Positions 10,337 through 56,006 of a DNA stretch of 64,000 nt are shown here, piece by piece (the stretch's first letter is position 1; each line of letters begins with the position of its first letter). The notes beneath the pieces are model-generated. The model had not been told where the DNA came from, did not search any database, and saw only the letters and a program-made list of their open reading frames with translations. Made by a program: the position numbers and the translations under genes. Source of the DNA: Dictyostelium discoideum (lineage: Eukaryota). The stretch covers positions 4,512,001 through 4,576,000 of the forward strand of contig CM000152.2 of assembly GCA_000004695.1 (NCBI GenBank), in the 5' to 3' direction.

Positions 10337-10589
10337 ATATAATACCGTTTATAAAAAGATTGATGAAATAGTTTATTGTAATACTTTTTTATATTATTAT
10401 TTTTATTGTTTTTTTTTTAAAATGTTTTTTTGGTTTATTAATTTATGTATGTCCTTAAGCATTTTATTCTTCATTTTCTTAATTTGACCACTTTTATATG
10501 AAATTACTATTTTCAAATTATTAAATAGATAGAAATTTGGTAGGAAAACTTTAAAATTGATTTTTTTTTTAAATTTATAAATTAGTTTT

Positions 10590-10989
10590 TTTTTTTTATA
10601 GTGAGTGAAGAGTGTGTTGAGTGTTGTGATATATTTGTTGAGATTTGTTGGTAGTGTTACAGAGTGAATTGGAGAGTTCCAATTCTTGCGAAATCTCTCA
10701 GTTGTTTGGATATGATAGATTTGTATTTTTTGGCTTGTTTGTTATTTGTGGCTTTTTTTCTTTTCTAATTAGTTTGTGTTTGTTGTTTTTGGTTAATGAA
10801 ATATCCAATTTGAATTTTAAATTTTTTTTTTTTTTTTTAATAACATCACTCAATTTGAGTGTGTTCTAGGAGAGTTTATTTGTAGTTTTTTTTTTTTTAT
10901 ATTTTTTTTTTTTTTATTCTTATTTTTTTATTATTATTATTATTATATTATTATTATTATTATATTATTATTATTATTATTATTGTTAT

Positions 10990-11034
<45 letters not shown>

Positions 11035-11750
11035 GGTAGTTGGTGTTATATGAGCAGTATGGTCTGAAGTGTTCCTCATGAGTTTCGAGTTCCAGTTGTG
11101 ACTGAATTTTTCGAGTCTTCTTTTTATTGATGCGGTCCGATTGATTGACTCTCGGTTATCAGTGCATCTTAGTTCTTGTCGTAGTTGCTTTTCTACTATC
11201 TTTCTTGTTCTATCCCATTCGGCAACTCTCGCTTTTTTGATTTTATGAATTATTTGGTTCTCTGTTATTATTGTAGTGTTATCGTTGAATTTTATTTGGT
11301 TTCTTCTGTACCATATCGATTCCATAATGGCTCCTATCAGATTTGATGAGAATGGTGTGAGTAGTTTTCCGAGAACTTTTTCGCTCCATGGACCGTGGTA
11401 AGTGTTGTTAGAGTCTTTACAGACCTTTTGATAGATTGAGTCGATATCCTGTTTTATTGATTTGCATTCGAAGAAGATGTGCATAGACCACTCTTCTTCT
11501 TTACATGAGTGGCAATTCTCCCCATGGTGTTTTGGAAGTGCCTTGAGTAGATACCTCCATGCTAAGTCTCTTCCTTTGATAGTTGTTATTGATCTGGCTT
11601 CTCTAAATGGTAGAGTTGGGTGATTAATGTTCTTTTGAATCAGTTTTTGACCTGTTGTTGGCTGGTGTTTGTTCCATCCCTTGTATTTTATATCCATCAT
11701 GTTTCTATAGATTACTTTTTGTTTTAGTATTTGGGTTTTGTAGATAATGA
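10590..11750 (-). mobile_element. Tandem 5'-truncated TRE5-like non-LTR retrotransposon fragments upstream of tRNA-Leu. The proximal copy carries an ORF2 C-terminus plus a poly(A) tail; the distal copy is a C-module-like 3' end.
   Basis: The minus-strand ORF 10960-11700 is a non-LTR ORF2 C-terminal region (cysteine-rich ...HHGENCHSCKEEEWSMHIFFECK...). It runs into a poly(A) of about 45 nt (poly-T at 10990-11035 on the plus strand). An AC-rich segment with no coding potential (10600-10880 on minus) ends in a second oligo(A) at 10587-10599. The 5' end lies about 45 bp from the tRNA gene, as expected for TRE5 targeting about 48 bp upstream of tRNA genes. Confidence 0.55.
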
Positions 11751-11793
11751 ATTTTAAATTAGTATTAGTCTAAATAAAATTAAAAATAAAAAA

Positions 11794-11875
11794 GTAAGCT
11801 TGCCCGAGCTGGTCTAAGGGGTTGCATTAAGGCTGCAATATCATTGATACAAGGGTTCGAATCCCTTAGCTTACA
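11794..11875 (+). tRNA. tRNA-Leu (anticodon AAG), 82 nt, with a long variable arm.
   Basis: Acceptor stem GTAAGCT/AGCTTAC plus discriminator A. D-arm GCCCGAGCTGGTCTAAGGGG. Anticodon stem TTGCA/TGCAA with loop TTAAGGC (U33, AAG, G37). Long variable arm. T-arm AAGGG-TTCGAAT-CCCTT. Closely parallels eukaryotic tRNA-Leu. Confidence 0.85.
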
Positions 11876-11879
11876 AAAT

Positions 11880-12811
11880 TTTTTAAAACGAATCCTGTTA
11901 AATTTTATAGTTATAATCTATAAGATCAAAAGCAAGCAATCAAACGGATACTAGATACAGAAAAACATAATAAACAGAAGCAACCCTTACATCCCATCCA
12001 CCCCTAAGACACCTGTCAATAAAGAAAGGAAAGGAATCATTGAGAGCTTCATAGAGAGTATCTACCCTTCACCATCCAAACCGCAGCTATACGACTCCCA
12101 AGAGGAGATCGATATCATCTCATAATGGTAGTAATCAAAATCAACCAATGGAATGTCAGAGGTTGGGGCACTGACACCTCCTTCAAAAACAAAACAGACT
12201 TTATCAAATCCCAATCCCCCCCAAACTCATTGGCACTAACCATAGTCAATGAACTCAATGCTGACGCAACACAAGCACACCAGCTATTTCCTGGCTCCAT
12301 CATTAGTGCAACCAACAGAGGCAACGGAATAGGAATACTAAACCACAACAACCAAAACATAAAACCCTCACCAATATTCATAATAGAAGGTAGACTAATA
12401 ATATCAGACATTCTAATAAAAGATACCACAACGAGAATCTTGGCCATATACGCCCCGGCCCAACCTGATAAAAGAAAAATACTAGCTTCAACACTAAACA
12501 AACACTTCAACAACCAATACCAAATTGGCCACTCTAGAATACATCAAAAAAGCAAAAGATCTGAAAAACTTATCAGCAAAAGACCATAATAACTTCAAAG
12601 ATCCTAAGATCCTTCTCACCTCAACGATCAAGCTAAGAAAAACAACAGCTAATTACTATTGTATTCCAGAATCATCTCTCCCAAATATTATATCTTTTGA
12701 TCAATTCATATGATTAAAATAACCCTTCAGCTTAAATGATAAGCCTATAAATAAATATTAAATAAAAACTCGTATTAACACAGATGGACATATATCAATC
12801 TTGTTAATCCA

Positions 12812-12845
<34 letters not shown>
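11880..12845 (+). mobile_element. Internally deleted or partial TRE3-like non-LTR retrotransposon immediately downstream of tRNA-Leu. It has an APE-type endonuclease N-terminus and a 3' module with poly(A).
   Basis: ORF 12125-12589 (MVVIKINQWNVRGWGTD...ILAIYAPAQPDKRK) is an L1-like AP-endonuclease domain (WNVRG...YAP). The 3' 250 bp plus A35 tail (12590-12845) recurs in reverse complement at 55600-55835, beside other tRNA genes. Confidence 0.55.
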
Positions 12846-12846
<1 letters not shown>

Positions 12847-13069
12847 AAACATATCCATCATCAATCTAACATCAACTACATTCAATCTATCTACTCTACA
12901 CACTAATTTCTTCAATCCTTGGATTGGGAATAAGAATAGATCTGAATAAACGAGAAAGAAAAAAAAAAAAAAAAATTAAAATTAAAAATCAAAAATATTT
13001 TTATATAAACACATAATTAAAAAAAAAATAATAAAAATAATATAAAAAAAAAAAAAAAAAAAAAAAAAA

Positions 13070-13402
13070 ATGAATTTTTTCGATAAACTTAAAGGTGAAC
13101 TCAACTTAGGCGAGGAAGAGTTAAATAAAAAAACTATTCAAATAAGGTTATTCTACCCAAATACCTTGGAATTAAATAGTAATTCAACAAAATTAATAGA
13201 TAATTTCATAGTTAATGGTACTCTTAACATTGTCAGAAGACAAAAGGGTATAACAGTATTCGGTAGAATACTAAAAGAAAATTCACATTATTACACGAGT
13301 GTTACAGCACTTTCAAGTATGAAGATTTCCCACTGCAAAAATTCATACTTTACACCCCAGGATATCACTATGTCCACTTTTACACATTTACAAAAAACAT
13401 AA
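13070..13402 (+). CDS. Non-LTR retrotransposon ORF1 (110 aa), possibly continued by ORF 13423-13941.
   Basis: It sits immediately 5' of ORF2 within the element. There is no recognisable domain. Confidence 0.4.
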   Translation: MNFFDKLKGELNLGEEELNKKTIQIRLFYPNTLELNSNSTKLIDNFIVNGTLNIVRRQKGITVFGRILKENSHYYTSVTALSSMKISHCKNSYFTPQDITMSTFTHLQKT

Positions 13403-13940
13403 TAAAAAAAATAAACAATCAAATGGTAAAAGAAAACTGGGGATTGGAGCCATTACTAATAGATGAATGCAACATAGTAATGCTACCAGATGTGATTAGA
13501 TATTCATGCATACTATTATTTAATAAAGAAGATGATATCTCAATCATTAAAACAAACATTGATGCTATAAAAGGTAGTAAGCATCCAATAAGAGCCTTCA
13601 TCTCTGAATATAACAATAAAGAAATAAGAGATGTTAGAAAAAAAAAAAACACAAGTAATAAAAACCAACAACCAACAACTACAAATACAACTAAATCAAT
13701 ACCATCAACTCCACCAACAACTAATGCATCAACAACCACACCAATAACAACCACACCAATAACAACCACACAAACAACAACCACACCAACAACAACCACA
13801 CATCAATTACCAACAAGCAATACAACAATCTACAACCTAAACAAAACTACTACTACTACTACTACTACTACAAAACCTATCAATAAAATTACTACAAGCA
13901 ATGGTACCAAGTTTCCAATTGCCAGTAGTATTAGAAAATA

Positions 13941-16900
13941 ATGGAACAATTAAAATTATTACTATGGAACTGCAGAGGTAATCAATCAACCAACGCTAAG
14001 AATAAAACAGAAGAAACGATAAAAAGAATTGGCACTCAATTAGCACTCCTAACTGAAACTAATTTCAATGGATTCAACCACCACAAAACAATGTTCAACT
14101 TTGAAAGAATAGATCATGGTTCAGGTAAAGGAACTGGCATAGCAATAGAAAATAGAGATACAAGAAAAGGCCACATATCAATAAACTTCAAAGACGATGA
14201 TGGTAGAATACTATCAATTAAATACAATTCCTTTAATTCTATCAACATATTATTGATCTATGCTCCAGCGACTATATCTGAAAGAAACACCTTCATAATC
14301 AACTCAAAATCACTGTTTAAAAAATATAATTCAATCAACCATCAAATAATAGCAGGCGACTTCAATAACAACCACGATTGCAACAGCTTCTTCGGTACTG
14401 AATTACGTAAAATAATAGACCAAGACATGCTACTAGATACTGGTATTGAAGAAAACACTCCAACATTTCCAAGATCAATGAAGAGACTAGATAGAATCTA
14501 CTGTCATCCAACACTACTAAACCAAAATTCAAAACTGGTAGTCCACAACACAGTATTTAACAAATCAGATCACTTTCCCATCACAATCACAATACAAACC
14601 AACAGAGAAACAACAACAACAACAACAACCAAATTAGAAAGACTCCCTTGGACATTATGTAAAGAAATTCTCAACAACAAACATATACATGATGGGTTAT
14701 CAGAATTAATCAGTAAGAACAAAGATAAGATCAAATCAGTGGAGGAATGGACGAAATTTAAAAATAATGTCATCAGAGATTATTTTAAAAAAGAACAAAA
14801 CAAAATAAAGAAAGAAAAGAACAAAAGAAAATACGTAATCCACAAATTACTTGGAAATAGTGATATCATTCCAAAGATGAGAAAAGAACTCAATGAAGAA
14901 ATAAGTAGAATATTAGAAGAAGAAAGAAAGGTAAAAGCATGGGATATCAAATTAAAACTCCACCTGCATCAAGAAACACCAAGCAAATACCTCACAAGTA
15001 TCCTTAAATCCAGAGCCAAAGATAAATCAATATTCCAAATAAAAGATAAAGATAATAAGACCATATCAGATAAAGAGAACATAGCAAAAAGATTTGTTGA
15101 ATTCTATCAAGATCAATATGAAGAGAAAGAAGATAACGAAGAAACCCACAAGAAGTTATTAGAAAAATGGGAAGTAGACGTTGATTTAATCAAGAAACTC
15201 GAGATAGACAGACCGATAAGAATACATGAAGTGACCAAAGCAATCAAAACTTCAAGTATCCACAAATCTCCAGGTTTAGACGGTATCAATGCACTATTCT
15301 ACAAGTACCACATCAACTCAATAGCAAGAATATTGACTATAGCTTTCAACGACCTCCTCACAAATAAGAAAGAAATCCCCACAAAATTCAAAGAAGGAGT
15401 AATAACAACAATATTCAAAAAAGGAGATGAACTAAACATTTCAAATAGAAGACCAATCACCCTTCTCAATACAGATTACAAAATTTTAAGCAAAATTCTC
15501 AACAGTAGATTATTAGATATCACCAGTAAAATTATCAACAAATTTCAAAACGGCTTTGTTCCAAACAGGTTCATCCAAGACAATATTCAGATCATGAAGG
15601 AAGTAATAGAAATAAGTAACAAAAGAAAGAACAATACACTCATTACCTTTTACGATTTTAACAAAGCATTCGATTCAATCAGCCACAAGAGTATCACAAG
15701 AACATTAGAGCATATTGGTATCCCCCCAAAATTCACAGCGATCCTACTAAACCTACTCAAAGATACTAAAAACAAAATAAAGATCAACGACTTTTTAGTC
15801 AATGGAATAACAATCAGAACAGGAACAAAACAAGGAGACCCAATATCACCAACAATCTTTGCTCTAGTTTTAGAACCACTTCTAATAGATATCATCAATG
15901 ATAATACAATCAAAGGCTTCACTCTACCAAATTCCAAATCATTAAAACTCACTGCATTTGCTGACGACATAGCAACCTTTACAAACTCCACAGAAGAACT
16001 AATGAAAATTAATACTAAAATCCAAAAGTACTGCTCAGCAACGTCATCATCGTTAAACAAAGAGAAAACAGTAATGATAGCAATAGGAGATAAACCACAC
16101 GATCTACCATTCCAAGAGAGTACAGTCCCAGAAAGATATCTTGGCCTCAATTTCACCAAAACAGGTTTAAATTCAAAATACAACACTTTAATCCAAGAAA
16201 TGAAAAACAATCTAATCAAATGGAAATCACAAGCAATAACGATGAAGGCAAAGATGACAATTCTCAAAACATACGTTCTATCCAAATTAACATACCATCA
16301 ATACATGGATAATCTAAATGAAGAACAAATTGAGGAAATCAATAACATGACCAGATGGTTCTTATTCTCCTCAGTTAAGAATACATATACAGAAGAGAGA
16401 AAATACAAAACTATGATGAAAATAGACAGAGCATATGCAGATTGGAAAGAAGGAGGCATAAAATTATGGGATATAGAACTAAGACATATAGCATTCAAAA
16501 TCTGGTACATGAACAGGCTACTCCATAACAACTACAACAACAACAACAATACCTTACAAGAATGGTACATGGAGCAATTAAGTAGAAAAAAAGCCCACAC
16601 TTCAACCCTCAACGATATGTGCAGACACTGGGGTGTATTCAGAGTCAAATTTTACCAAAACCATCCAAAGATAAATGAACTTCCAGACTGTATAAGAAAC
16701 GACAATGACGAACCACTAAAACTGAAAGAAATTTACGAACTCATGATCAAAGACAGACACCCAACACCAAGAAGAACAGAATGGCAGAAGTTATGGGCGG
16801 TGAGATACAACACAGCAATACCCAAAGTATTCATAAACATCAACAGCATTTCTCACCAAAAAGGTAGAAACACCCTCTTCAGATTCTTCTCAAGATCACT

Positions 16901-17384
16901 TCCAGGTATCAACCACGAAAGAGACACCAGATGCAAGATCTGTGGCCACCTATTCAGAGACCCTTATTCTCACCTCTTCACTCTATGCCAAGATATCCTA
17001 GATATTGAAAAAACCATCATATCAACAGTTAACAAATTATCATTCATCAAAATCCACAGATGGTCAATGGATACCTTAGACATATCAAAATACAACAGAA
17101 CTGAGAGAATCTTCCCCAATCTCATAGGAATAATAGCACACCAATTATGGAAGATAATCTGTCACAAATTGTTCAACACTGATGAAAGCAAACCAGAGCC
17201 AAAATTCGAACAAAAGGTCATAGAAACAGAATTACTAAATCTCATCGAAACTGAAAAATTCATCACACTAAAGAAAATCAAACACGACGAAGCAATACTA
17301 AAAAATACAAATCAAGATCTTCACAAATACAAATTCAACAAAGCCTGGCAAACCCCAGCAGCTCCGAACCCTCTTCCAATTTAA
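13941..17384 (+). CDS. Non-LTR retrotransposon ORF2 (endonuclease plus reverse transcriptase), 1147 aa, apparently intact.
   Basis: Uninterrupted ORF in the track with EN and RT motifs as above. The FADD box stands in for YXDD. Confidence 0.8.
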   Translation: MEQLKLLLWNCRGNQSTNAKNKTEETIKRIGTQLALLTETNFNGFNHHKTMFNFERIDHGSGKGTGIAIENRDTRKGHISINFKDDDGRILSIKYNSFNSINILLIYAPATISERNTFIINSKSLFKKYNSINHQIIAGDFNNNHDCNSFFGTELRKIIDQDMLLDTGIEENTPTFPRSMKRLDRIYCHPTLLNQNSKLVVHNTVFNKSDHFPITITIQTNRETTTTTTTKLERLPWTLCKEILNNKHIHDGLSELISKNKDKIKSVEEWTKFKNNVIRDYFKKEQNKIKKEKNKRKYVIHKLLGNSDIIPKMRKELNEEISRILEEERKVKAWDIKLKLHLHQETPSKYLTSILKSRAKDKSIFQIKDKDNKTISDKENIAKRFVEFYQDQYEEKEDNEETHKKLLEKWEVDVDLIKKLEIDRPIRIHEVTKAIKTSSIHKSPGLDGINALFYKYHINSIARILTIAFNDLLTNKKEIPTKFKEGVITTIFKKGDELNISNRRPITLLNTDYKILSKILNSRLLDITSKIINKFQNGFVPNRFIQDNIQIMKEVIEISNKRKNNTLITFYDFNKAFDSISHKSITRTLEHIGIPPKFTAILLNLLKDTKNKIKINDFLVNGITIRTGTKQGDPISPTIFALVLEPLLIDIINDNTIKGFTLPNSKSLKLTAFADDIATFTNSTEELMKINTKIQKYCSATSSSLNKEKTVMIAIGDKPHDLPFQESTVPERYLGLNFTKTGLNSKYNTLIQEMKNNLIKWKSQAITMKAKMTILKTYVLSKLTYHQYMDNLNEEQIEEINNMTRWFLFSSVKNTYTEERKYKTMMKIDRAYADWKEGGIKLWDIELRHIAFKIWYMNRLLHNNYNNNNNTLQEWYMEQLSRKKAHTSTLNDMCRHWGVFRVKFYQNHPKINELPDCIRNDNDEPLKLKEIYELMIKDRHPTPRRTEWQKLWAVRYNTAIPKVFININSISHQKGRNTLFRFFSRSLPGINHERDTRCKICGHLFRDPYSHLFTLCQDILDIEKTIISTVNKLSFIKIHRWSMDTLDISKYNRTERIFPNLIGIIAHQLWKIICHKLFNTDESKPEPKFEQKVIETELLNLIETEKFITLKKIKHDEAILKNTNQDLHKYKFNKAWQTPAAPNPLPI

Positions 17385-17389
17385 GTAGT

Positions 17390-17450
<61 letters not shown>

Positions 17451-17754
17451 ATATAGTTTAAAAAATTTAATACAATTGAATAATAATAATAAAACCTTTT
17501 AACAAACACCGCTGAAAAGACACAAGGACATTCCTTGAAGGTCTGATCACAGGTAAAAAAAAAAAAAAACACCGCTTTTAGGTAAAAAAAAAAAAAAAGT
17601 TATAATATATAAATAAAAACGTAAAACTGATTTTTCGAAAAACGAAAAATTGTTTTTATATTTTATTTTTATTTTTTATTTTCGGTTTTAACAAACCGAA
17701 CTTCGTAAAGTACCAAAATACTTTACAATCCATATTTAATTTTCATTTTGCAGA

Positions 17755-18330
17755 AAACGCACATGTCCCATGCCAAAATTAATATGGCTGCTGAAATTAA
17801 TATGGTAATTTTGGCATGGGACTTATGTCTGCTAGAATTACCACATTAATTTCAGCAGCCATATTAATTTTGGCATGCACAGACCAACTATTTTAGGCTG
17901 AAATTAATATGGCTGCCGAAATTAATATGGTAATTTTGGGCATAGAAAAATAAAAAAAAAACTCAAAGTCATTTAATTAATAATCATCTCAAATATAAAA
18001 GAATTAAAAATAATAAAAAAAAACTCATGGGATTAATTACAGTAACAATACTGATGACAAGAATAATTATAAAATAAAAAAAAAAAAAAAATCTTTTTTT
18101 ATCTTTTTATTTTTATTTCTTATTTATTTTCATGTGTTCAAAAAAAGTGGTGGTTTAAAACAATTTATTTAATTTTAAACTGTATGATTGTTTAAACAAT
18201 TTCGAAATAAGTTTCTTTAAAGAAATTCTGTATTTCTTTTTTTTATTTTATTTTATTTCATTTCATTCTATTTTTTTTTTTTTATTTTTTTTATTTTTTT
18301 ATTTTTTTATTTTTTTTTTGTATATTTAAG

Positions 18331-18424
<94 letters not shown>

Positions 18425-18426
18425 TA

Positions 18427-18470
<44 letters not shown>

Positions 18471-19575
18471 ATTACTATTATTTAATTGACCGAAGGGATA
18501 TCTTTTACTTTTTTTTTATATATAATTGTTCGAAACTTTAAAAAATAAAATAAAAAAAAAAAATTAAAAAAAAAAATATAAAAAAAAAATTAAAAAAATT
18601 AAAAAGTATTTTTTTTTTTTATTTTTTTATTTTTCCACCCGAAGATGTCGCTTTTTTGGAATTTAAAGATGTTGAATTCAATCAAAGTGATGAATTTGGT
18701 GTATTATTTAACGAAGTTACTATTGATAAAAATGATTTGAAGTACAAAGTAAATGTTGAATTTAGAGAGGCGGAGACAAGTAAAATAAATTGCAAAGGGA
18801 TATCGAAATAACCAAAAGAAAATCAACAGATGACCTAGTTGAAAAAGCAATCGAGCACTCTACCACCGAAGTTAGATCAACACATGAAGCTGCAACAACT
18901 TCCAATAATGGTGGAATCACAACTCAATCAAACAAAAACAAAACGGGTAAAAAAAGAGCTAATCAATTACAATCTGATGCTGATTTTACCAAAAGATTTT
19001 CAAACGAAACTTCATCTGTTAGTAACAAAAGAGAAAGTAGAAGAGTCAATAATTAAAATAAAAAATTAAAAAAAAAAAATTATTTTAATTTTTTTTTTTT
19101 TTTTTTTTTTTTATTTTTAATTTTTTTTTTTATTTTTAATTTTTTTTTTTGTGAGCCGTGGACATAAATGAATAATAAAAAAATATATCAACTAAAAAAA
19201 AAAGAAATGAAAATAAATTATAAAATTAATAATAAAAATAAAAAGATAAAAATAAATAAAAGATATAAATAAAATAATATGAAAATTTTTTTTTTTTTTT
19301 TTTTTATTATTATAATTATTATAATAAAAATAATAATAATAATAATTTTAGTACTAAAATTTTGTTTATATTTGAGATGATTATTAATTAAATGACTTTG
19401 ACTTTTTTTTTTTTTCTATGCCAAAATTACCATATTAATTTTGGCAGCTATGTACATGCTGAAATTAATATGGCTGCTGAAATTAATACGGTAATTTTGG
19501 CAGACATAAGTCCCATGCCAAAATTAATATAGCTGCTGAAATTAATATGGTAATTTTGGCATGGGACACGCACAA
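17755..19575. mobile_element. Foldback or TIR-type hairpin-forming element: arms of about 200 bp (17755-18010 and 19365-19575) in inverted orientation. Each arm is itself built of perfect palindromes. The spacer is about 1.35 kb.
   Basis: The reverse complement of 17893-17990 matches 19371-19470. Each arm contains self-complementary units such as ccaaaattaatatggctgctgaaattaatatggtaattttgg, which equals its own reverse complement, and gcatgggac...gtcccatgc. The spacer holds (ATT)n at 18340-18475 and small ORFs (18640-19056) of unknown meaning. The structure resembles what I recall of Dictyostelium thug/hairpin repeats. It sits between a TRE3 tail and a TRE fragment. Confidence 0.45.
18340..18475. 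repeat. (ATT)n microsatellite of about 45 units, non-coding, inside the foldback element spacer.
   Basis: Seen directly. Confidence 0.9.
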
Positions 19576-20078
19576 TATAAAAAATACAGGTTCAACTGGA
19601 ATTATATAAACACAAATCTTGACCTAGTCAGAACACATGCATATTGGAACTTAATCTCATTAGTTATTCACCAAATATGGATATGGTTATGCAAATCATT
19701 ATTTGACATCAATATAACTCAATCAATTGACAATTGGAACAACCAAATAAACAACACAACACTAGATTATGATATATTAAAATCAAAATGGCACAAGCTA
19801 ATAAGATTGGAATATTCAAGAACATTATCAAACTTTAACCAATACTCAATTAAAAACAACCTCACAAAAACTCAAAAAGAAACCCAATGGTCCGAAACCA
19901 TCAAAAAATTTAAAAAAGAATGGAGCATAAACACAAATGAACCAATTCCAACAATTACACCACCAATTAATTATTAATTACCTAATCTAAAATAACATAC
20001 CATTTTAAATTCACAAAAACTAAAAAACCTAAAATAAATAAATAAAAATAACATACTACAATAGTTTATTTATATCAA

Positions 20079-20103
<25 letters not shown>
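19561..20103 (+). mobile_element. 3' fragment of a TRE-type non-LTR retrotransposon: ORF2 C-terminus, 3' UTR and A-tail.
   Basis: ORF 19561-19977 (...HAYWNLISLVIHQIWIWLCKSLF...) followed by a 3' UTR ending in A19 (20085-20103). The reverse complement of 19870-20090 is nearly identical to 55321-55560, next to the tRNA-Arg locus. Confidence 0.6.
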
Positions 20104-20109
<6 letters not shown>

Positions 20110-28911: not shown

Positions 28912-31356
28912 TTAATATCTTCTATTTAAAGTAGTTTCAACTTCACATGGTTTAATATCCCAAATTTGTTCAGCATATTCATTCATAGCTCTATCAGAAG
29001 AGAAGAAATAAGTTGAAGCACTGTTAATGATTGATTTTTTAACCCAAGCACTTTGATCTTTCCATAATTCATCAACTGAAGCTTGAGAGTCAAGGTAGAG
29101 TGGGAAATCTTGAATGCTTAAGTAGAAATCACTAAAGATTAAAGAGTCCAAGATTGGTCTGAAAACATCTGGTGGACCAAATGTACCTAATTCAATATTA
29201 AGGAATACCTCTTGAAGACGTGGGTCAATGTTGACTTCTTTGTTTGTCATTTTTTCACGAGCAGCTTCAACTTCACTTGTACGTAAACCAAAGATAAACA
29301 TATTCTCTTGACCAACTTCTTCGGCGATTTCAACATTTGCACCATCCAAAGTACCAATGATTAAACTACCATTCATAGTGAATTTCATGTTACTAGTACC
29401 AGAGGCTTCGGTACCAGCGGTTGAAATTTGTTGATTGATATCAGAGGCTGGAACGATGACTTGAGCGATTGAAACGTTGTAATTTGCAATGAAAACAACC
29501 TTGAGGTATTGATCGACCTCTTTATCACGGTTGATAACCTCGGCAACAGAGTTGATTAATTTGATATGTCTTTTAGCCATAACATAACCTGGGGCAGCTT
29601 TACCGGCGAAAATTACAACACGTGGTACAACTTGAGCTCTATCTTTTGGAGACATCTTTTTAATGGAAAGATAACGATAGATGACAGAGAGAATATTTAA
29701 TAATTGTCTCTTGTATTCGTGAATTCTCTTGATATGAACATCAAAGAGAGCGTTTGGATTAACATGAATACCACAATGTTTAAGGATGAATTCAGCTAAA
29801 CGTTGTTTATTGCCTTGTTTAACGTATTTCCATTCAGCGATTAACTCTGGATTATCCATATGTTCCTTGATACCTTTGACCAATTCTAAATTGGTTGTCC
29901 ATTTATCGGTACCTAACCATTTGGTGAAGATAGCGGATAAACCTGGGTTAGCTTGTTCAATCCAACGTCTTGGAGTGACACCATTGGTTTTGTTTTGGAA
30001 TTTCTCTGGCCAGAGACAAAAGAAATCTGGGAATACCTTATGTTTGACCAATTCAGAGTGCATAGCAGCGACACCATTTACACAATGTGAACCAACGATA
30101 GCGAGATGAGCCATTCTGACTCTCTTCTCTTCACCTTCTTGAATGATGGAGAGACCTCTCATTTTACCGATATCACCTGGCCATTTTTGAGTGACTTGAA
30201 TGAGGAAACGATGATTGATACCATAGATGAGTTGCATATGACGTGGAAGGAGATCTTCGATCAAACTAACTGGCCACATTTCCAAAGCTTCTGGAAGAAT
30301 GGTATGATTGGTGTAAGCAAAGGTTTTGGTAACGATATCCCAAGCCTCTTCCCATTGAAGACCTTCCTCATCGATGAGTTTTCTAAAGAGTTCAACTACA
30401 CCAATGGTTGGATGAGTATCATTCAATTGAATGGCTACTTTATTTGGGAAATCTTGCCAATTTTGATGAGATTTCTTGAAACGTCTAATGACATCACAAA
30501 GGGTGGCAGCAACAAAGAAGTATTGTTGTTTCAATCTTAATTCTTTACCAGAGTAGGTGTTATCATTTGGATAGAGGACCGATGTGATATTCTCTGATCT
30601 TTGTTTAGCTTCTACGGCAGATAAATAGTTACCACCATTGAATGCATCCAAATCAAACTCTTTATGTGGTTTGCTTGACCAAAGACGAATGTTATTGGTG
30701 TTGGTGGTATGATAGCCTGGTACTGGTGTATCGTAAGCGATTGCTTGTACCAATTCACCATGATCCCATTCAAATTTACTACCATCACTTGATTTCTTCT
30801 CTGTGACTTGACCATAGAAACGAACGGTGTATTGAACATCCAAACGTTCAATCTCCCATGGATTACCAGCTACCAACCAATAATCTGGTACCTCGGTTTG
30901 ATAACCATCATAGATACCTTGTTCAAACATACCATAATTATAACGAAGACCATAACCCCATGCTGGATACTTTAATGTTGCCAATGAATCCATGAAACAT
31001 GCAGCTAAACGACCCAAACCACCATTACCCAATGCAGCATCTTTCTCCTCTTCGTAGAGGTCTTCCATTTCAAAGCCCAACTCTAACAAGGCATTATGAT
31101 ATTCATCTTTGAGATTCATATTGTAAATTGCATTTTGTAATGATCTACCCATTAAAAATTCCATTGATAAATAGTAAACTCTCTTTGGATCTCTCTCTGT
31201 ATAGTATTGTTGTGTTTCATTCCATCTTTCAATTAAACGATCTCTAACACTATATGCTGATCCTTGATATGCTGAAAATGAATCAAAATTATATTTTGTT
31301 CTTGCTAATGTATATTCAACATGATCTAAAATATCTTTTTGAATTGAATCTTCATC

Positions 31357-55299: not shown

Positions 55300-55835
55300 T
55301 AATCAGATTTTTTTTTTTTTTTTGATATAAATAAACTATTGTAGTATACAATTAGTATGTAATTTTTATTTATTTATTTTAGGTTTTTTAGTTTTTGTGA
55401 ATTTAAAATAGTATGTTATTTTAGATTAGGTAATTAATAATTAATTGGTGGTGTAATTGTTGGAATTGGTTCATTAGTGTTTATGCTCCATTCTTTTTTA
55501 AATTTTTTGATGGTTTCGGACCATTGGGTTTCTTTTTGAGTTTTTGTGAGGTTGTTTTTAATTGAGTATTGGTTAAAGTTTGTTTTTTTTTTTTTTTTTT
55601 TAATATTGGATTAACAAGATTGATATATGTCCATCTGTGTTAATACGAGTTTTATTTAATATTTATTTATAGGCTTATCATTTAAGCTGAAGGGTTATTT
55701 TAATCATATGAATTGATCAAAAGATATAATATTTGGGAGAGATGATTCTGGAATACAATAGTAATTAGCTGTTGTTTTTCTTAGCTTGATCGTTGAGGTG
55801 ATTAAAGTTTGATAAAGTATTTAATTAATCAGATA
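55300..55835 (-). mobile_element. Two tandem 3' fragments of TRE3-type non-LTR retrotransposons on the minus strand, downstream of the tRNA-Arg gene. Each ends in poly(A), which reads as poly-T on the plus strand.
   Basis: 55321-55560 is the reverse complement of the 3' end of the 19561-20103 element. 55600-55835 is the reverse complement of 12600-12845. Poly-T tracts at 55305-55322 and 55585-55610 are the A-tails. Orientation and position (3' of a tRNA, 5' end toward the tRNA) fit TRE3 behaviour. Confidence 0.6.
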
Positions 55836-55839
55836 TCGA

Positions 55840-55847
55840 ACCCATGA

Positions 55848-55881
<34 letters not shown>

Positions 55882-55925
55882 TAAAAGCGGTGTTAGAACC
55901 CATGACCTATAATAGATATTTACTA
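55840..55925 (-). promoter_or_regulatory. Duplicated external B-box-like elements downstream of tRNA-Arg, flanking a minimal TRE3 tail insertion.
   Basis: In minus-strand sense, 3' of the tRNA: ...GGTCATGGGTTCtaacaccgcttttaggt(A)26GGTCATGGGTTCGATATC. GGGTTCGAT is B-box-like (GGTTCGANTCC). The 12-bp direct repeat GGTCATGGGTTC flanks a 17-bp-plus-A26 insert whose sequence (acaccgcttttaggt + An) also occurs at 17565-17595, after another TRE3 tail. Confidence 0.35.
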
Positions 55926-55933
55926 AAAAAATT

Positions 55934-56006
55934 CACCCATTGTGGGTCTCGATCCCACGACCTGCAGCTTAGAAGGCTGCCGCAATTCCAACTTTGCTAA
56001 ACGGGC
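55934..56006 (-). tRNA. tRNA-Arg (anticodon UCU), 73 nt.
   Basis: Minus-strand sequence GCCCGTT-TA-GCAA-AGTTGGAA-TTGC-G-GCAGC-CTTCTAA-GCTGC-AGGTC-GTGGG-ATCGAGA-CCCAC-AATGGGT-G. The D, anticodon and T stems are perfect. The acceptor stem has two G-U wobbles (1-72 and 5-68), and the T-loop has A at position 54, which is unusual and makes a slightly degenerate or low-activity copy possible. Confidence 0.6.

Follow-up and report, generated by a model that had tools for sequence, protein, structure and literature searches.

We analysed a 64,000-nucleotide stretch of DNA (the window) from chromosome 3 (6.36 Mb) of Dictyostelium discoideum AX4, in which gene models are already annotated. A tRNA-Leu(AAG) gene on the plus strand, called by ARAGORN and scoring 50.8 bits against the Rfam tRNA model, lies within a pile-up of TRE non-LTR retrotransposons, as an earlier note on this DNA had proposed; its internal B box reads ggttcgaatcc (11854-11864). 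The note ended the pile-up at 17600, and we found that the stack reaches ~20105. The features are as follows, with positions counted from the first nucleotide of the window.

10586-10810, minus strand: TRE5-type fragment, last ~35 codons of ORF2 and poly(A) (from C-terminal ORF2 alignment; 5′ boundary approximate)
10822-11747, minus strand: 5′-truncated TRE5-A-like element of the P0009 family (from tblastn and target-site duplication, TSD)
11794-11875, plus strand: tRNA-Leu(AAG)
11909-11923, plus strand: candidate outer TSD, 5′ copy agttataatctataa, matching 17598-17612 at 14 of 15 positions
11924-11969, plus strand: first 46 nt of the TRE3-C-type element, with a 5′ end common to independent copies in L003 and L004
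11970-12843, plus strand: nested TRE3-A-type fragment of 874 bp (from identity to L003 and L005 elements and TSD)
12854-17569, plus strand: remainder of the TRE3-C-type element (rest of the 5′ UTR, ORF1, ORF2, A56 run, 3′ UTR, A15 tail)
17570-17598, plus strand: mini retro-insertion of 14 nt, caccgcttttaggt, plus A15, which recurs at tRNA-Arg(TCT)
17598-17612, plus strand: candidate outer TSD, 3′ copy agttataatatataa, matching 11909-11923 at 14 of 15 positions
17735-20105, plus strand: 5′-truncated TRE3-B-type fragment of the P0008 family (from tblastn; 5′ boundary approximate)
17765-19568, no strand assigned: thug-S-like DNA element (~270-bp terminal inverted repeats, TIRs; cgcaca duplication; mir-7131 hairpins)

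The labels TRE3-A, TRE3-B, TRE3-C, and TRE5-A are indirect assignments, based on how long and how abundant the elements are and on the successive accession numbers AAD43057 (pol) and AAD43058 (gag). Literature text searches for AF134169-72, AF298207, the dictyBase identifiers, and "TRE3-C ORF" product names returned no match, and the supplements of PMC4559204, PMC5006619, and PMC12405889 contained no primers, named alignments, or gene tables naming these families.

The position-specific, Pol III-linked placement suggested in the earlier note was evident from the distances to the tRNA gene. A TRE5 lies 46 bp upstream in the opposite orientation. On the downstream side the TRE3 insertion points are at +48 and +94 bp, and the elements there are oriented like the tRNA gene, as the note had stated. 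Published TRE insertions fall 37-90 bp upstream or 14-305 bp downstream of tRNA genes (PMC5006619 Table 1; PMC5911963), and both the outer and the nested TRE3 elements lie within the ~40-150 bp, same-orientation zone typical of TRE3. Other TRE3 copies were found at +90 (L002) and +98 (L004), all on the strand of the tRNA. Self-BLAST of the window revealed one other repeat only, a TRE3-A-type 3′ end at tRNA-Arg; BLAST without the low-complexity filter returned largely A/T-run noise. A GC-rich block at 29-31 kb, considered as a repeat, proved to be a glycogen phosphorylase gene.

Upstream TRE5 fragments and the distal downstream flank

Upstream of the tRNA gene, both minus-strand fragments showed homology to TRE5-type ORF2, in agreement with the proposal of two 5′-truncated TRE5-like fragments there. 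The distal fragment carries a poly(A) tail that reads as T12 on the plus strand (10586-10597). Its minus-strand translation "...ERFRKNWNSPIHSVTLPTNLNKYITTLNTLFTHY" aligned to the very C-terminal end of P0012 and P0011, both TRE5-like ORF2s, and 10598-10810 was 55% identical to P0012 over residues 962-992 of 993 (the last 31). This alignment suggests a fragment of TRE5-B or TRE5-C type, outside the TRE5-A-like family. It may be bounded by an 8-bp TSD, taaattag (10578-10585 and 11755-11762), and would represent the oldest upstream insertion.

TRE5-A, formerly called DRE, is the family resembled by the proximal element. This copy retains the C-terminal part of ORF2 (11041-11724), an A40 run within the element (10992-11031), and an AT-rich 3′ UTR whose unique 3′ end, from 10839, is followed by an A17 tail (10822-10838). 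It was 94% identical to P0009 residues 822-1047 by tblastn and 91.7% identical to a TRE5 copy in L002, whose 3′ end sets the true terminus. The TSD tgaattttaaa flanks it at 10811-10821 and 11748-11758, the latter copy lying 36-46 bp before tRNA position 1 (11794). The truncated 5′ end at 11747 places the insertion point at the typical TRE5 distance of ~50 bp (37-90 bp) upstream.

At the opposite end of the stack, the TRE3-B-type fragment comprises ORF2 residues ~1133-1275, a 3′ UTR, and poly(A) (20079-20105), and P0008 matched 19570-19926 with 99% identity (tblastn). A 1.8-kb TIR element interrupts it (17764/19575); with that element excised, residues 1133-1275 align continuously. The interrupting element is surrounded by the 6-bp duplication cgcaca (17759-17764 and 19569-19574), contains inverted repeats at 17801-17881/19451-19531 (89%) and 17949-18018/19346-19415 (86%), and matched Rfam RF03716 (mir-7131) on both strands, with 93.8 bits at 17781-17867. 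Multicopy miRNA loci have been reported inside thug-S (PMC6161686), and we term the element thug-S-like on account of its TIRs, duplication, and mir-7131 hairpins.

Ends and nesting of the TRE3 elements

The earlier note arranged the remaining downstream sequence as a tandem, with a deleted TRE3-like copy (11880-12845), a potentially active full-length copy (12846-17448) closed by an A48 tail, and two mini-tails (17500-17600). Such a tandem would account for an intact ORF2 with its domains, for the poly(A) (12817-12843) that directly precedes sequence of the full-length family, and for the long A run after the ORF2 stop codon. However, the full-length copies in L003, L004, and L002 neither begin at the equivalent of 12846 nor end at the A run. 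The conserved ~31-nt 5′ end of the family sits at 11939-11969, before the supposed deleted copy: the first 46 nt (11924-11969) comprise ~15 non-consensus nt followed by the conserved 5′ core atcaaacggatactagatacagaaaaacata, and our start call, ~11924 or 48 bp past the 3′ end of tRNA-Leu, rests on the 5′ end "atcaaacggatactagatacag". This 5′ end is cut from the body of the element (12854 onward) by the 874-bp fragment, which is flanked by a perfect 10-bp TSD, gaaaaacata (11960-11969 and 12844-12853).

The supposed neighbour is a deleted TRE3, as the note had it, but with a different extent and place, being nested inside the 5′ end of the TRE3-C-type element. It lacks ~1.26 kb at the 5′ end and 3.1 kb internally (deletion junction near 12522), and it closes with an A27 tail (12817-12843). 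The fragment gave tblastn matches with P0013, and two stretches of the full-length 5.26-kb elements in L003 and L005 matched it at 98-99% identity. Its insertion point, 94 bp downstream of the tRNA, lies 46 nt inside the TRE3-C-type 5′ end. A further hidden truncated element at 12846-13069 was considered and rejected; the stretch is 5′ UTR in L003, L004, and L005.

At the other end, the presumed A48 tail is an internal A56 run (17393-17448), beyond which three independent copies continue into a common 106-nt 3′ UTR that ends in gatcacaggt and poly(A). Because these copies run past the A run to one 3′ end, we place the end of the element at 17554 (gatcacaggt), followed by an A15 tail (17555-17569). 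L002 and L003b share this end, and the L002 copy is bounded by a perfect 17-bp TSD. The first of the two mini-tails, which lacks the "acaccgcttttaggt" structure ascribed to it, is accordingly the element's own 3′ end; the second (17570-17598) is a separate insertion. The TRE3-C-type element shared 99.4% identity with L004 across 4.3 kb and 99.5% with L001. Its ORF1 is moreover split by a 1-bp deletion relative to all other copies and the GenBank gag, and we regard the tandem arrangement as highly improbable.

The mini insertion has a counterpart elsewhere. An identical tag, "taacaccgcttttaggt", occurs at +38 bp from tRNA-Arg(TCT), where ~A28 follows it and a perfect 13-bp TSD, aggtcatgggttc, surrounds it; a longer version ending in caccacttttaggt and A16 occurs in L003. 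The insertion is the 3′ tag of a TRE3-C-related family, possibly TRE3-D. The candidate outer TSD encloses it together with the TRE3-C-type element; the two copies differ by one mismatch, and a match as long as these 15 bp arose in 7 of 500 shuffled versions of the flanks. One explanation is that tag and element arrived in a single event, in which reverse transcription would have started on an caccgcttttaggt-poly(A) RNA and, 14 nt later, moved by a template switch onto the poly(A) of a TRE3-C RNA. The single detectable 15-bp duplication around both, the lack of any duplication between tail and tag, and two short 3′ tags arranged in tandem downstream of tRNA-Phe in L002 are consistent with such an event. 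However, the tag occurs alone with its own TSD at tRNA-Arg and is therefore capable of inserting by itself, a TRE3-C that later entered this nick and produced no duplication would leave the same pattern, and the TSD match is modest. We consider a single event possible but somewhat doubtful.

The nested site is also polymorphic between strains. At the orthologous locus of a near-isogenic strain (L005), 9.4 kb of flanking sequence differ by 0-1 substitutions, yet there is an extra full-length 5.26-kb TRE3-A that is absent from AX4. This element lies 2 nt from the nested site, at +92, with the TSD gaaaaaca. The TRE3-A-type ORF1 and ORF2 proteins are each encoded by 4-5 identical copies in the L005 genome.

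Coding state of the TRE3-C-type copy

ORF2 (13941-17384) encodes 1147 aa with APE and RT motifs and no stops, as previously described. Pfam identified Exo_endo_phos at residues 8-211 and RVT_1 at residues 493-737, and the translation shows a FADD motif and a CX2CX9HX4C zinc finger, "CKICGHLFRDPYSHLFTLC". The two ORFs, the order APE, RT, and zinc finger in ORF2, and the poly(A) tail represent a non-LTR architecture; with neither stops in ORF2 nor a best match outside the TREs, the identification of the element as a TRE stands. ORF2 departs from the family consensus by two private changes, both synonymous, and its protein is 100% identical to that of the orthologous copy in another strain, which indicates that the family is young.

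ORF1 was previously considered intact, but a 1-bp deletion in "ctaaaagaaaattcac" (13271-13286) splits the 290-aa gag. The reading frame begins with the ATG at 13070, ends with the stop at 13939-13941, and is left in the pieces 13070-13402 and 13423-13941. The deletion is private: none of four other copies, the orthologous one among them, shows it, nor does the GenBank gag AAD43058.1; after its correction, ORF1 was ~99% identical to P0069 and to the 290-aa AAD43058.1. The first piece is exactly the annotated gene DDB_G0281451 (110 aa), which mirrors the deletion, and ORF2 corresponds to DDB_G0281455. An autonomous copy would be of full length, with both ORFs intact and its 5′ UTR or promoter region unbroken. 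As the sequence stands, ORF1 is frameshifted and the 5′ UTR is cut 46 nt in, and the description of the copy as potentially active does not hold. These lesions outside ORF2 weaken the case for autonomy, and the copy would serve at best as a trans-donor of ORF2 protein rather than as an autonomous source element.

The frameshift itself may not be a real lesion but a Sanger sequencing error in the AX4 reference. On this assumption the copy could be truly coding-competent, supplying gag and pol and perhaps retrotransposing from a downstream start. All four window-private differences, the frameshift among them, cluster within 300 bp (12976-13277) just past the A17 and A27 runs, with essentially identical flanks; the near-isogenic orthologue has the extra A at the site, together with the identical ORF2 protein. 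However, the deletion is present in the window sequence and in the AX4 gene model, and the 5′ UTR would still be broken at 46 nt by 874 bp with AATAAA-like signals and A27. Furthermore, the copy in the other strain carries its own 1-bp frameshift in an A12 run (13638-13649), which leaves ORF1 at 225 aa and may be a long-read homopolymer error, and by published counts AX4 has just two TRE3-C copies in which the ORFs are intact (PMC5006619). Competence of this copy is conceivable, and we lean towards a non-autonomous element.

Proposed insertion history and comparison with known systems

The anatomy, homologies, TSDs, distances, and strain polymorphism described above very probably reflect a time-ordered, nested stack of tRNA-targeted TREs around tRNA-Leu(AAG) on AX4 chromosome 3. 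Following the mechanism in the literature, where roles of TFIIIC and TFIIIB are proposed, each TRE would have integrated through target-primed reverse transcription, with its distance from the tRNA-bound Pol III complex fixed; because of this fixed spacing, later TREs would land on or inside earlier ones. Upstream, a TRE5-B/C-type element, of which the tail remains, would have come first, followed by the 5′-truncated TRE5-A-like copy 46 bp from the tRNA. Downstream, the 5′-truncated TRE3-B-type fragment would be the oldest, later split by the thug-S-like element. The 14-nt mini insertion and the full-length TRE3-C-type element would have followed, both at +48 and within one 15-bp TSD, and then the 874-bp TRE3-A-type copy at +94, by then 46 nt inside the TRE3-C 5′ UTR. 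In the near-isogenic strain only, a further full-length TRE3-A would have been added at +92.

About 61% of D. discoideum tRNA genes carry a TRE, and clusters of TRE5 and TRE3 at these genes are well described. As a known kind of feature, the locus adds little that is new. Tandems arising from repeated targeting of one tRNA gene are documented in the supplement of PMC5006619. The value of the present case lies in a corrected annotation map (true ends, nesting, tail-like poly(A) runs within elements, and the frameshifted gag with its possible reference error) and in a clean natural example of repeated integration, with three TRE3 events within ~45 bp and two within 2 nt. One of these TRE3 insertions is polymorphic between near-identical strains and could mark ongoing TRE3-A activity. 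We tentatively propose, as a joint and rather speculative reading, that TRE3-A mobility is ongoing in close, possibly laboratory, lineages and that the 14-17-nt "caccgcttttaggt" plus poly(A) constitutes a minimal TRE3-C/D tag. If so, the extra element in L005 would be direct evidence of TRE3-A mobility in closely related lineages, the tRNA gene would set the point of TRE3 integration almost to the nucleotide even where the target is another retrotransposon, and the 14-17-nt insertions would represent the shortest 3′ tag on an RNA that the TRE3-C/D machinery recognises.

Among known systems, the main element is most likely TRE3-C, an L1-clade non-LTR family, with which it shares two ORFs, an ORF2 with APE, RT, and zinc finger, poly(A), and a position downstream of a tRNA in the same orientation. 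Without the nested insert it measures 4762 bp, against consensus lengths of 4734 bp for TRE3-C, 5229 bp for TRE3-A, and 5279 bp for TRE3-B (PMC5006619 Table 1). A TRE3-A or TRE3-B shortened by 500 bp was rejected on length, on 5′-end conservation, and on the separate 5.26-kb family in L003 and L005. The gag is ~99% identical to AAD43058.1 and intact copies in AX4 are few, as for TRE3-C. The main ORF2 was merely 33-35% identical to the TRE3-A-type, TRE3-B-type, and TRE5-A-like ORF2s, which would fit the published ambiguous placement of TRE3-C. The copy differs from TRE3-C in its 874-bp TRE3-A-type insert 46 nt from the 5′ end, the 1-bp ORF1 frameshift, and the first ~15 nt, which deviate from other copies.

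TRE3-A, formerly Tdd-3, is the most abundant TRE3. The L003 and L005 elements resemble it in length (5222 bp without tail against the 5229-bp consensus), and in having the largest protein clusters found (37 and 79 members), and the nested fragment resembles it in its insertion point ~94 bp downstream of the tRNA; in the window, however, 874 bp remain, inside another TRE3 and not in intergenic DNA. Similarly, the P0009 cluster matched by the element at 10822-11747 has 39 members, more than any other TRE5-type ORF2 family; the element lies with its 5′ side toward the tRNA at 46 bp, as published for TRE5-A, and the related L002 copy has ~190-bp tandem 5′ modules and a 454-aa ORF1 (~51 kDa). Unlike a complete TRE5-A, the last ~0.9 kb alone remains here, and its assignment to TRE5-A over TRE5-B is provisional. 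Yeast Ty3 and Ty1 also show Pol III-tethered integration at tRNA genes, leading to safe-haven insertions and repeated hits on one gene, but these are LTR elements that use an integrase and insert upstream of tRNA genes only, whereas TRE3, as a non-LTR element, relies on an endonuclease and target-primed reverse transcription and inserts downstream.

Boundaries and nesting of the tRNA-Leu stack

The anatomy, duplications, distances and orientations of the retroelement stack around tRNA-Leu(AAG) on Dictyostelium discoideum AX4 chromosome 3 were read directly in the window and at other loci.

Features of the stack (window positions unless a locus is named; strand where assigned)
10586-10810: last ~35 residues of another TRE5-type ORF2, then A12
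10822-11747, minus: single 5'-truncated TRE5-A-like copy, 94% identical to P0009 (TRE5-A-like ORF2); 46 bp ahead of tRNA nucleotide 1; 11-bp duplication
11794-11875, plus: tRNA-Leu(AAG), on which ARAGORN and Rfam agree
11909-11923 and 17598-17612: candidate TRE3-C duplication agttataat[c/a]tataa, 15 bp with 1 mismatch; insertion 48 bp past the tRNA 3' end
11938-11959 (L003 2320-2360; L005 1651-1690): motif GATCAA(N2)GGATAC(N)AGATACA
11970-12843: nested fragment, 874 bp, A27 tail; 94 bp past the tRNA 3' end; perfect 10-bp duplication gaaaaacata on both sides
13941-17384, plus: ORF2 of the large TRE3-C-type element, 1147 aa, without stop codons
17393-17448, plus: internal A56 run of the large element
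17554, plus: large-element 3' end common to copies, A15 tail to 17569
17570-17598: mini insertion caccgcttttaggt + A15, a real, recurrent product
17765-19568: 1.8-kb element, terminal inverted repeats of ~270 bp, cgcaca duplication
L005 1637-6894: extra full-length 5.26-kb TRE3-A, absent from the window

Three independent copies of the large element (window, L002, and L003) all extended beyond the A run following the ORF2 stop and shared a 106-nt 3' UTR ending in gatcacaggt and poly(A), and a perfect 17-bp duplication, tttcacccacagttaaa, bounded the whole L002 copy. Therefore, the run that an earlier note had taken for an A48 tail at the element end is the internal A56 run, and the element ends at 17554 with A15. 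Of two "mini-tails" described there, the first is the large element's own 3' end, and the second (17570-17598) stands as a separate recurrent insertion. Long internal poly(A) directly after the ORF2 stop, separated from the real tail by a short unique 3' module, was seen in both TRE3-C (17393-17448) and TRE5-A-like (10992-11031) elements; these runs mimic element ends and differ in length among copies (A56 vs A38, A31, and others).

Copies in L003 and L004 start with '...gatcaaacggatactagatacagaaaaacatatccatc...', the first part of which lay in the window at 11939-11969, directly downstream of the tRNA, with the remainder resuming at 12854. Because the 5' sequence is split at 11969/12854 around the 874-bp fragment flanked by gaaaaacata, this "deleted copy" is nested 46 nt inside the large element rather than arranged in tandem with it, as had been claimed; the large element measures 4762 bp once the insert is removed. 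A second instance of TRE3-A-in-TRE3-C nesting was observed in L003 (7636-7805), where a different TRE3-A-type 3' fragment, 170 bp long and with the duplication catcaact, interrupted a TRE3-C 5' end inside its initial ~65 nt. The 5'-terminal motif GATCAA(N2)GGATAC(N)AGATACA was similar in TRE3-C and TRE3-A, the ORF2s of which are only ~35% identical, and might represent a conserved transcription-start or 5'-end signal.

Both TRE5-like fragments reported upstream of the tRNA were recovered by ORF2 homology; the one at 10586-10810 is expected to be of TRE5-B or -C type. In the copy at 10822-11747, opposite in orientation to the tRNA and bounded by tgaattttaaa, long A runs occurred twice, as an internal A40 and as the A17 tail, and the 3' UTR was AT-rich. 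At L002 8700-9795, a TRE5-A-like element ending ~45 bp upstream of tRNA-Phe had a 5' end composed of ~5.5 tandem ~190-bp units that resemble repeated A-modules.

Coding content of the large element

The claimed 1147-aa endonuclease-reverse transcriptase ORF2 was confirmed as intact, with Exo_endo_phos (residues 8-211) and RVT_1 (residues 493-737) domains, the endonuclease motifs WNCRG, LLTETN, GDFN, and SDH, the RT motif FADD, and a CX2CX9HX4C zinc knuckle; it corresponds to gene model DDB_G0281455. The closest protein, also of 1147 aa and 99% identical, came from a public read assembly; sister species of the genus Dictyostelium had homologues at 60-86% identity, and one D. discoideum family reached 59%. 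In a five-copy alignment, the two private changes in the window ORF2 were both synonymous, and the ORF2 protein was identical in the window and L005, the orthologous locus of a near-isogenic strain. Private markers of the window copy are 12909 T, 17306 T, and 17309 A.

ORF1, claimed to be intact, was found in two pieces in different frames, 13070-13402 (110 aa, an exact match to DDB_G0281451) and 13423-13941. One extra A within 'ctaaaagaaaattcac' (window 13271-13286) joined the pieces in the copy at L002, a locus of another D. discoideum assembly, and the missing A was private to the window copy in the five-copy alignment. The frameshift-corrected 290-aa ORF1 was 99% identical to P0069, an intact 291-aa protein, and matched three intact AX4 gene models as well as GenBank 'gag' AAD43058.1 at ~99% identity. 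The ORF1 stop overlaps the ORF2 start (TAATG, 13939-13943), in keeping with published descriptions of TREs as having overlapping ORFs (PMC5911963). L005 carried the extra A at the frameshift site and was instead one A short in the A12 run at 13638-13649. All four window-private differences fell within 12976-13277, just past long A runs, so a sequencing error may account for the AX4 frameshift. Autonomous mobility of this copy, which had been called potentially active, is unlikely; its ORF2 could act in trans.

Family assignment and additional stack members

We infer the name TRE3-C for the large element from its length, ORF2 distances, and accession order. Consensus lengths are 5229, 5279, and 4734 bp for TRE3-A, TRE3-B, and TRE3-C, respectively (PMC5006619 Table 1), and the 4762 bp without the insert fits the last. 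Its ORF2 was about equally far (33-35%) from other TRE3 and TRE5 families, which fits the ambiguous placement published for TRE3-C. The accession of its gag, AAD43058, is the next number after AAD43057, the pol of another TRE3 family, which suggests serial submission in the order A, B, C. The nested fragment is provisionally assigned to TRE3-A by sequence resemblance: L003 and L005 contain 5.26-kb elements (5222 bp minus tail) to which it is 98-99% identical, and the proteins of those elements formed the largest clusters found.

Beyond 17600, the C-terminus of a TRE3-B-type ORF2, 99% identical to P0008 (TRE3-B-type ORF2), extended to poly(A) at 20079-20105 and was interrupted at 17764/19575 by the 1.8-kb element. 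The latter contained Rfam mir-7131 hairpins (matches at 17781-17867, both strands), consistent with the multicopy miRNAs described as borne by thug-S (PMC6161686), and is probably a thug-S carrying such hairpins. A GC-richer block at 29-31 kb was rejected as a repeat, being an ordinary glycogen phosphorylase gene (28912-31164, minus strand; Pfam Phosphorylase, 1057 bits).

The caccgcttttaggt tag with ~A28 also occurred 38 bp downstream of tRNA-Arg(TCT), between perfect 13-bp duplications, and a longer form was found in L003. The tag appears to be the 3' terminus of a TRE3-C sister family, possibly TRE3-D. A second TRE3 stack (55485-55908, minus strand) lay downstream of this tRNA-Arg(TCT) (55934-56006), consisting of the 17-nt tag 'taacaccgcttttaggt' with ~A28 and the perfect 13-bp target-site duplication aggtcatgggttc, which overlapped a B-box-like 'gggttcgatatc', then a 224-bp TRE3-A-type 3' end (55801-55579; 99% identical to 12616-12839; duplication caaactttaa), and finally a TRE3-B-type 3' fragment. 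Downstream of tRNA-Phe (L002 12740-12870), the 22-nt tag 'cttcatacccaactatattttc' occurred twice in tandem, each followed by long poly(A), and adds a further case in which tandem TRE-like 3' tags are very short.

Insertion positions and a polymorphic TRE3-A

When the flanks were shuffled 500 times, a match as long as the 15-bp candidate TRE3-C duplication arose only 7 times. This duplication surrounds TRE3-C and the second mini-tail together; the pair could have arisen in a single event, through template switching, or in two, and we favor neither. A partial B-box-like 'aaaacgaatcctg' at 11886-11898, 11-23 bp past the tRNA-Leu gene, is a possible external B box; such boxes are reported for D. 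discoideum tRNA genes.

In the other D. discoideum assembly (GCA_054883475.1), the flanks of L005 matched those of the window without any substitution over 1.6 kb upstream and with a single one over 7.8 kb downstream, and every element of the window stack was also present. The extra full-length TRE3-A, with the duplication gaaaaaca, follows the position corresponding to 11967, which places it 92 bp from the tRNA and only 2 nt away from the nested site. This insertion is polymorphic and probably very recent; its ORF1 and ORF2 proteins had 4-5 identical copies in that genome, and TRE3-A appears to have been recently mobile.

On the basis of the TRE literature (PMC5006619, PMC5911963, PMC5391098), each insertion would have proceeded through endonuclease nicking and target-primed reverse transcription, and the Pol III factors at the tRNA gene (B box, TFIIIC/TFIIIB) would have set its position. 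Because insertion distance would be measured from the tRNA, later TRE3 arrivals would fall inside earlier TRE3 copies, giving nested elements. The element types and layout logic of the earlier note hold; its boundaries, tail, tandem model, and intact ORF1 are wrong for this sequence. The stack represents a known type of feature, in a model genome that is already annotated.
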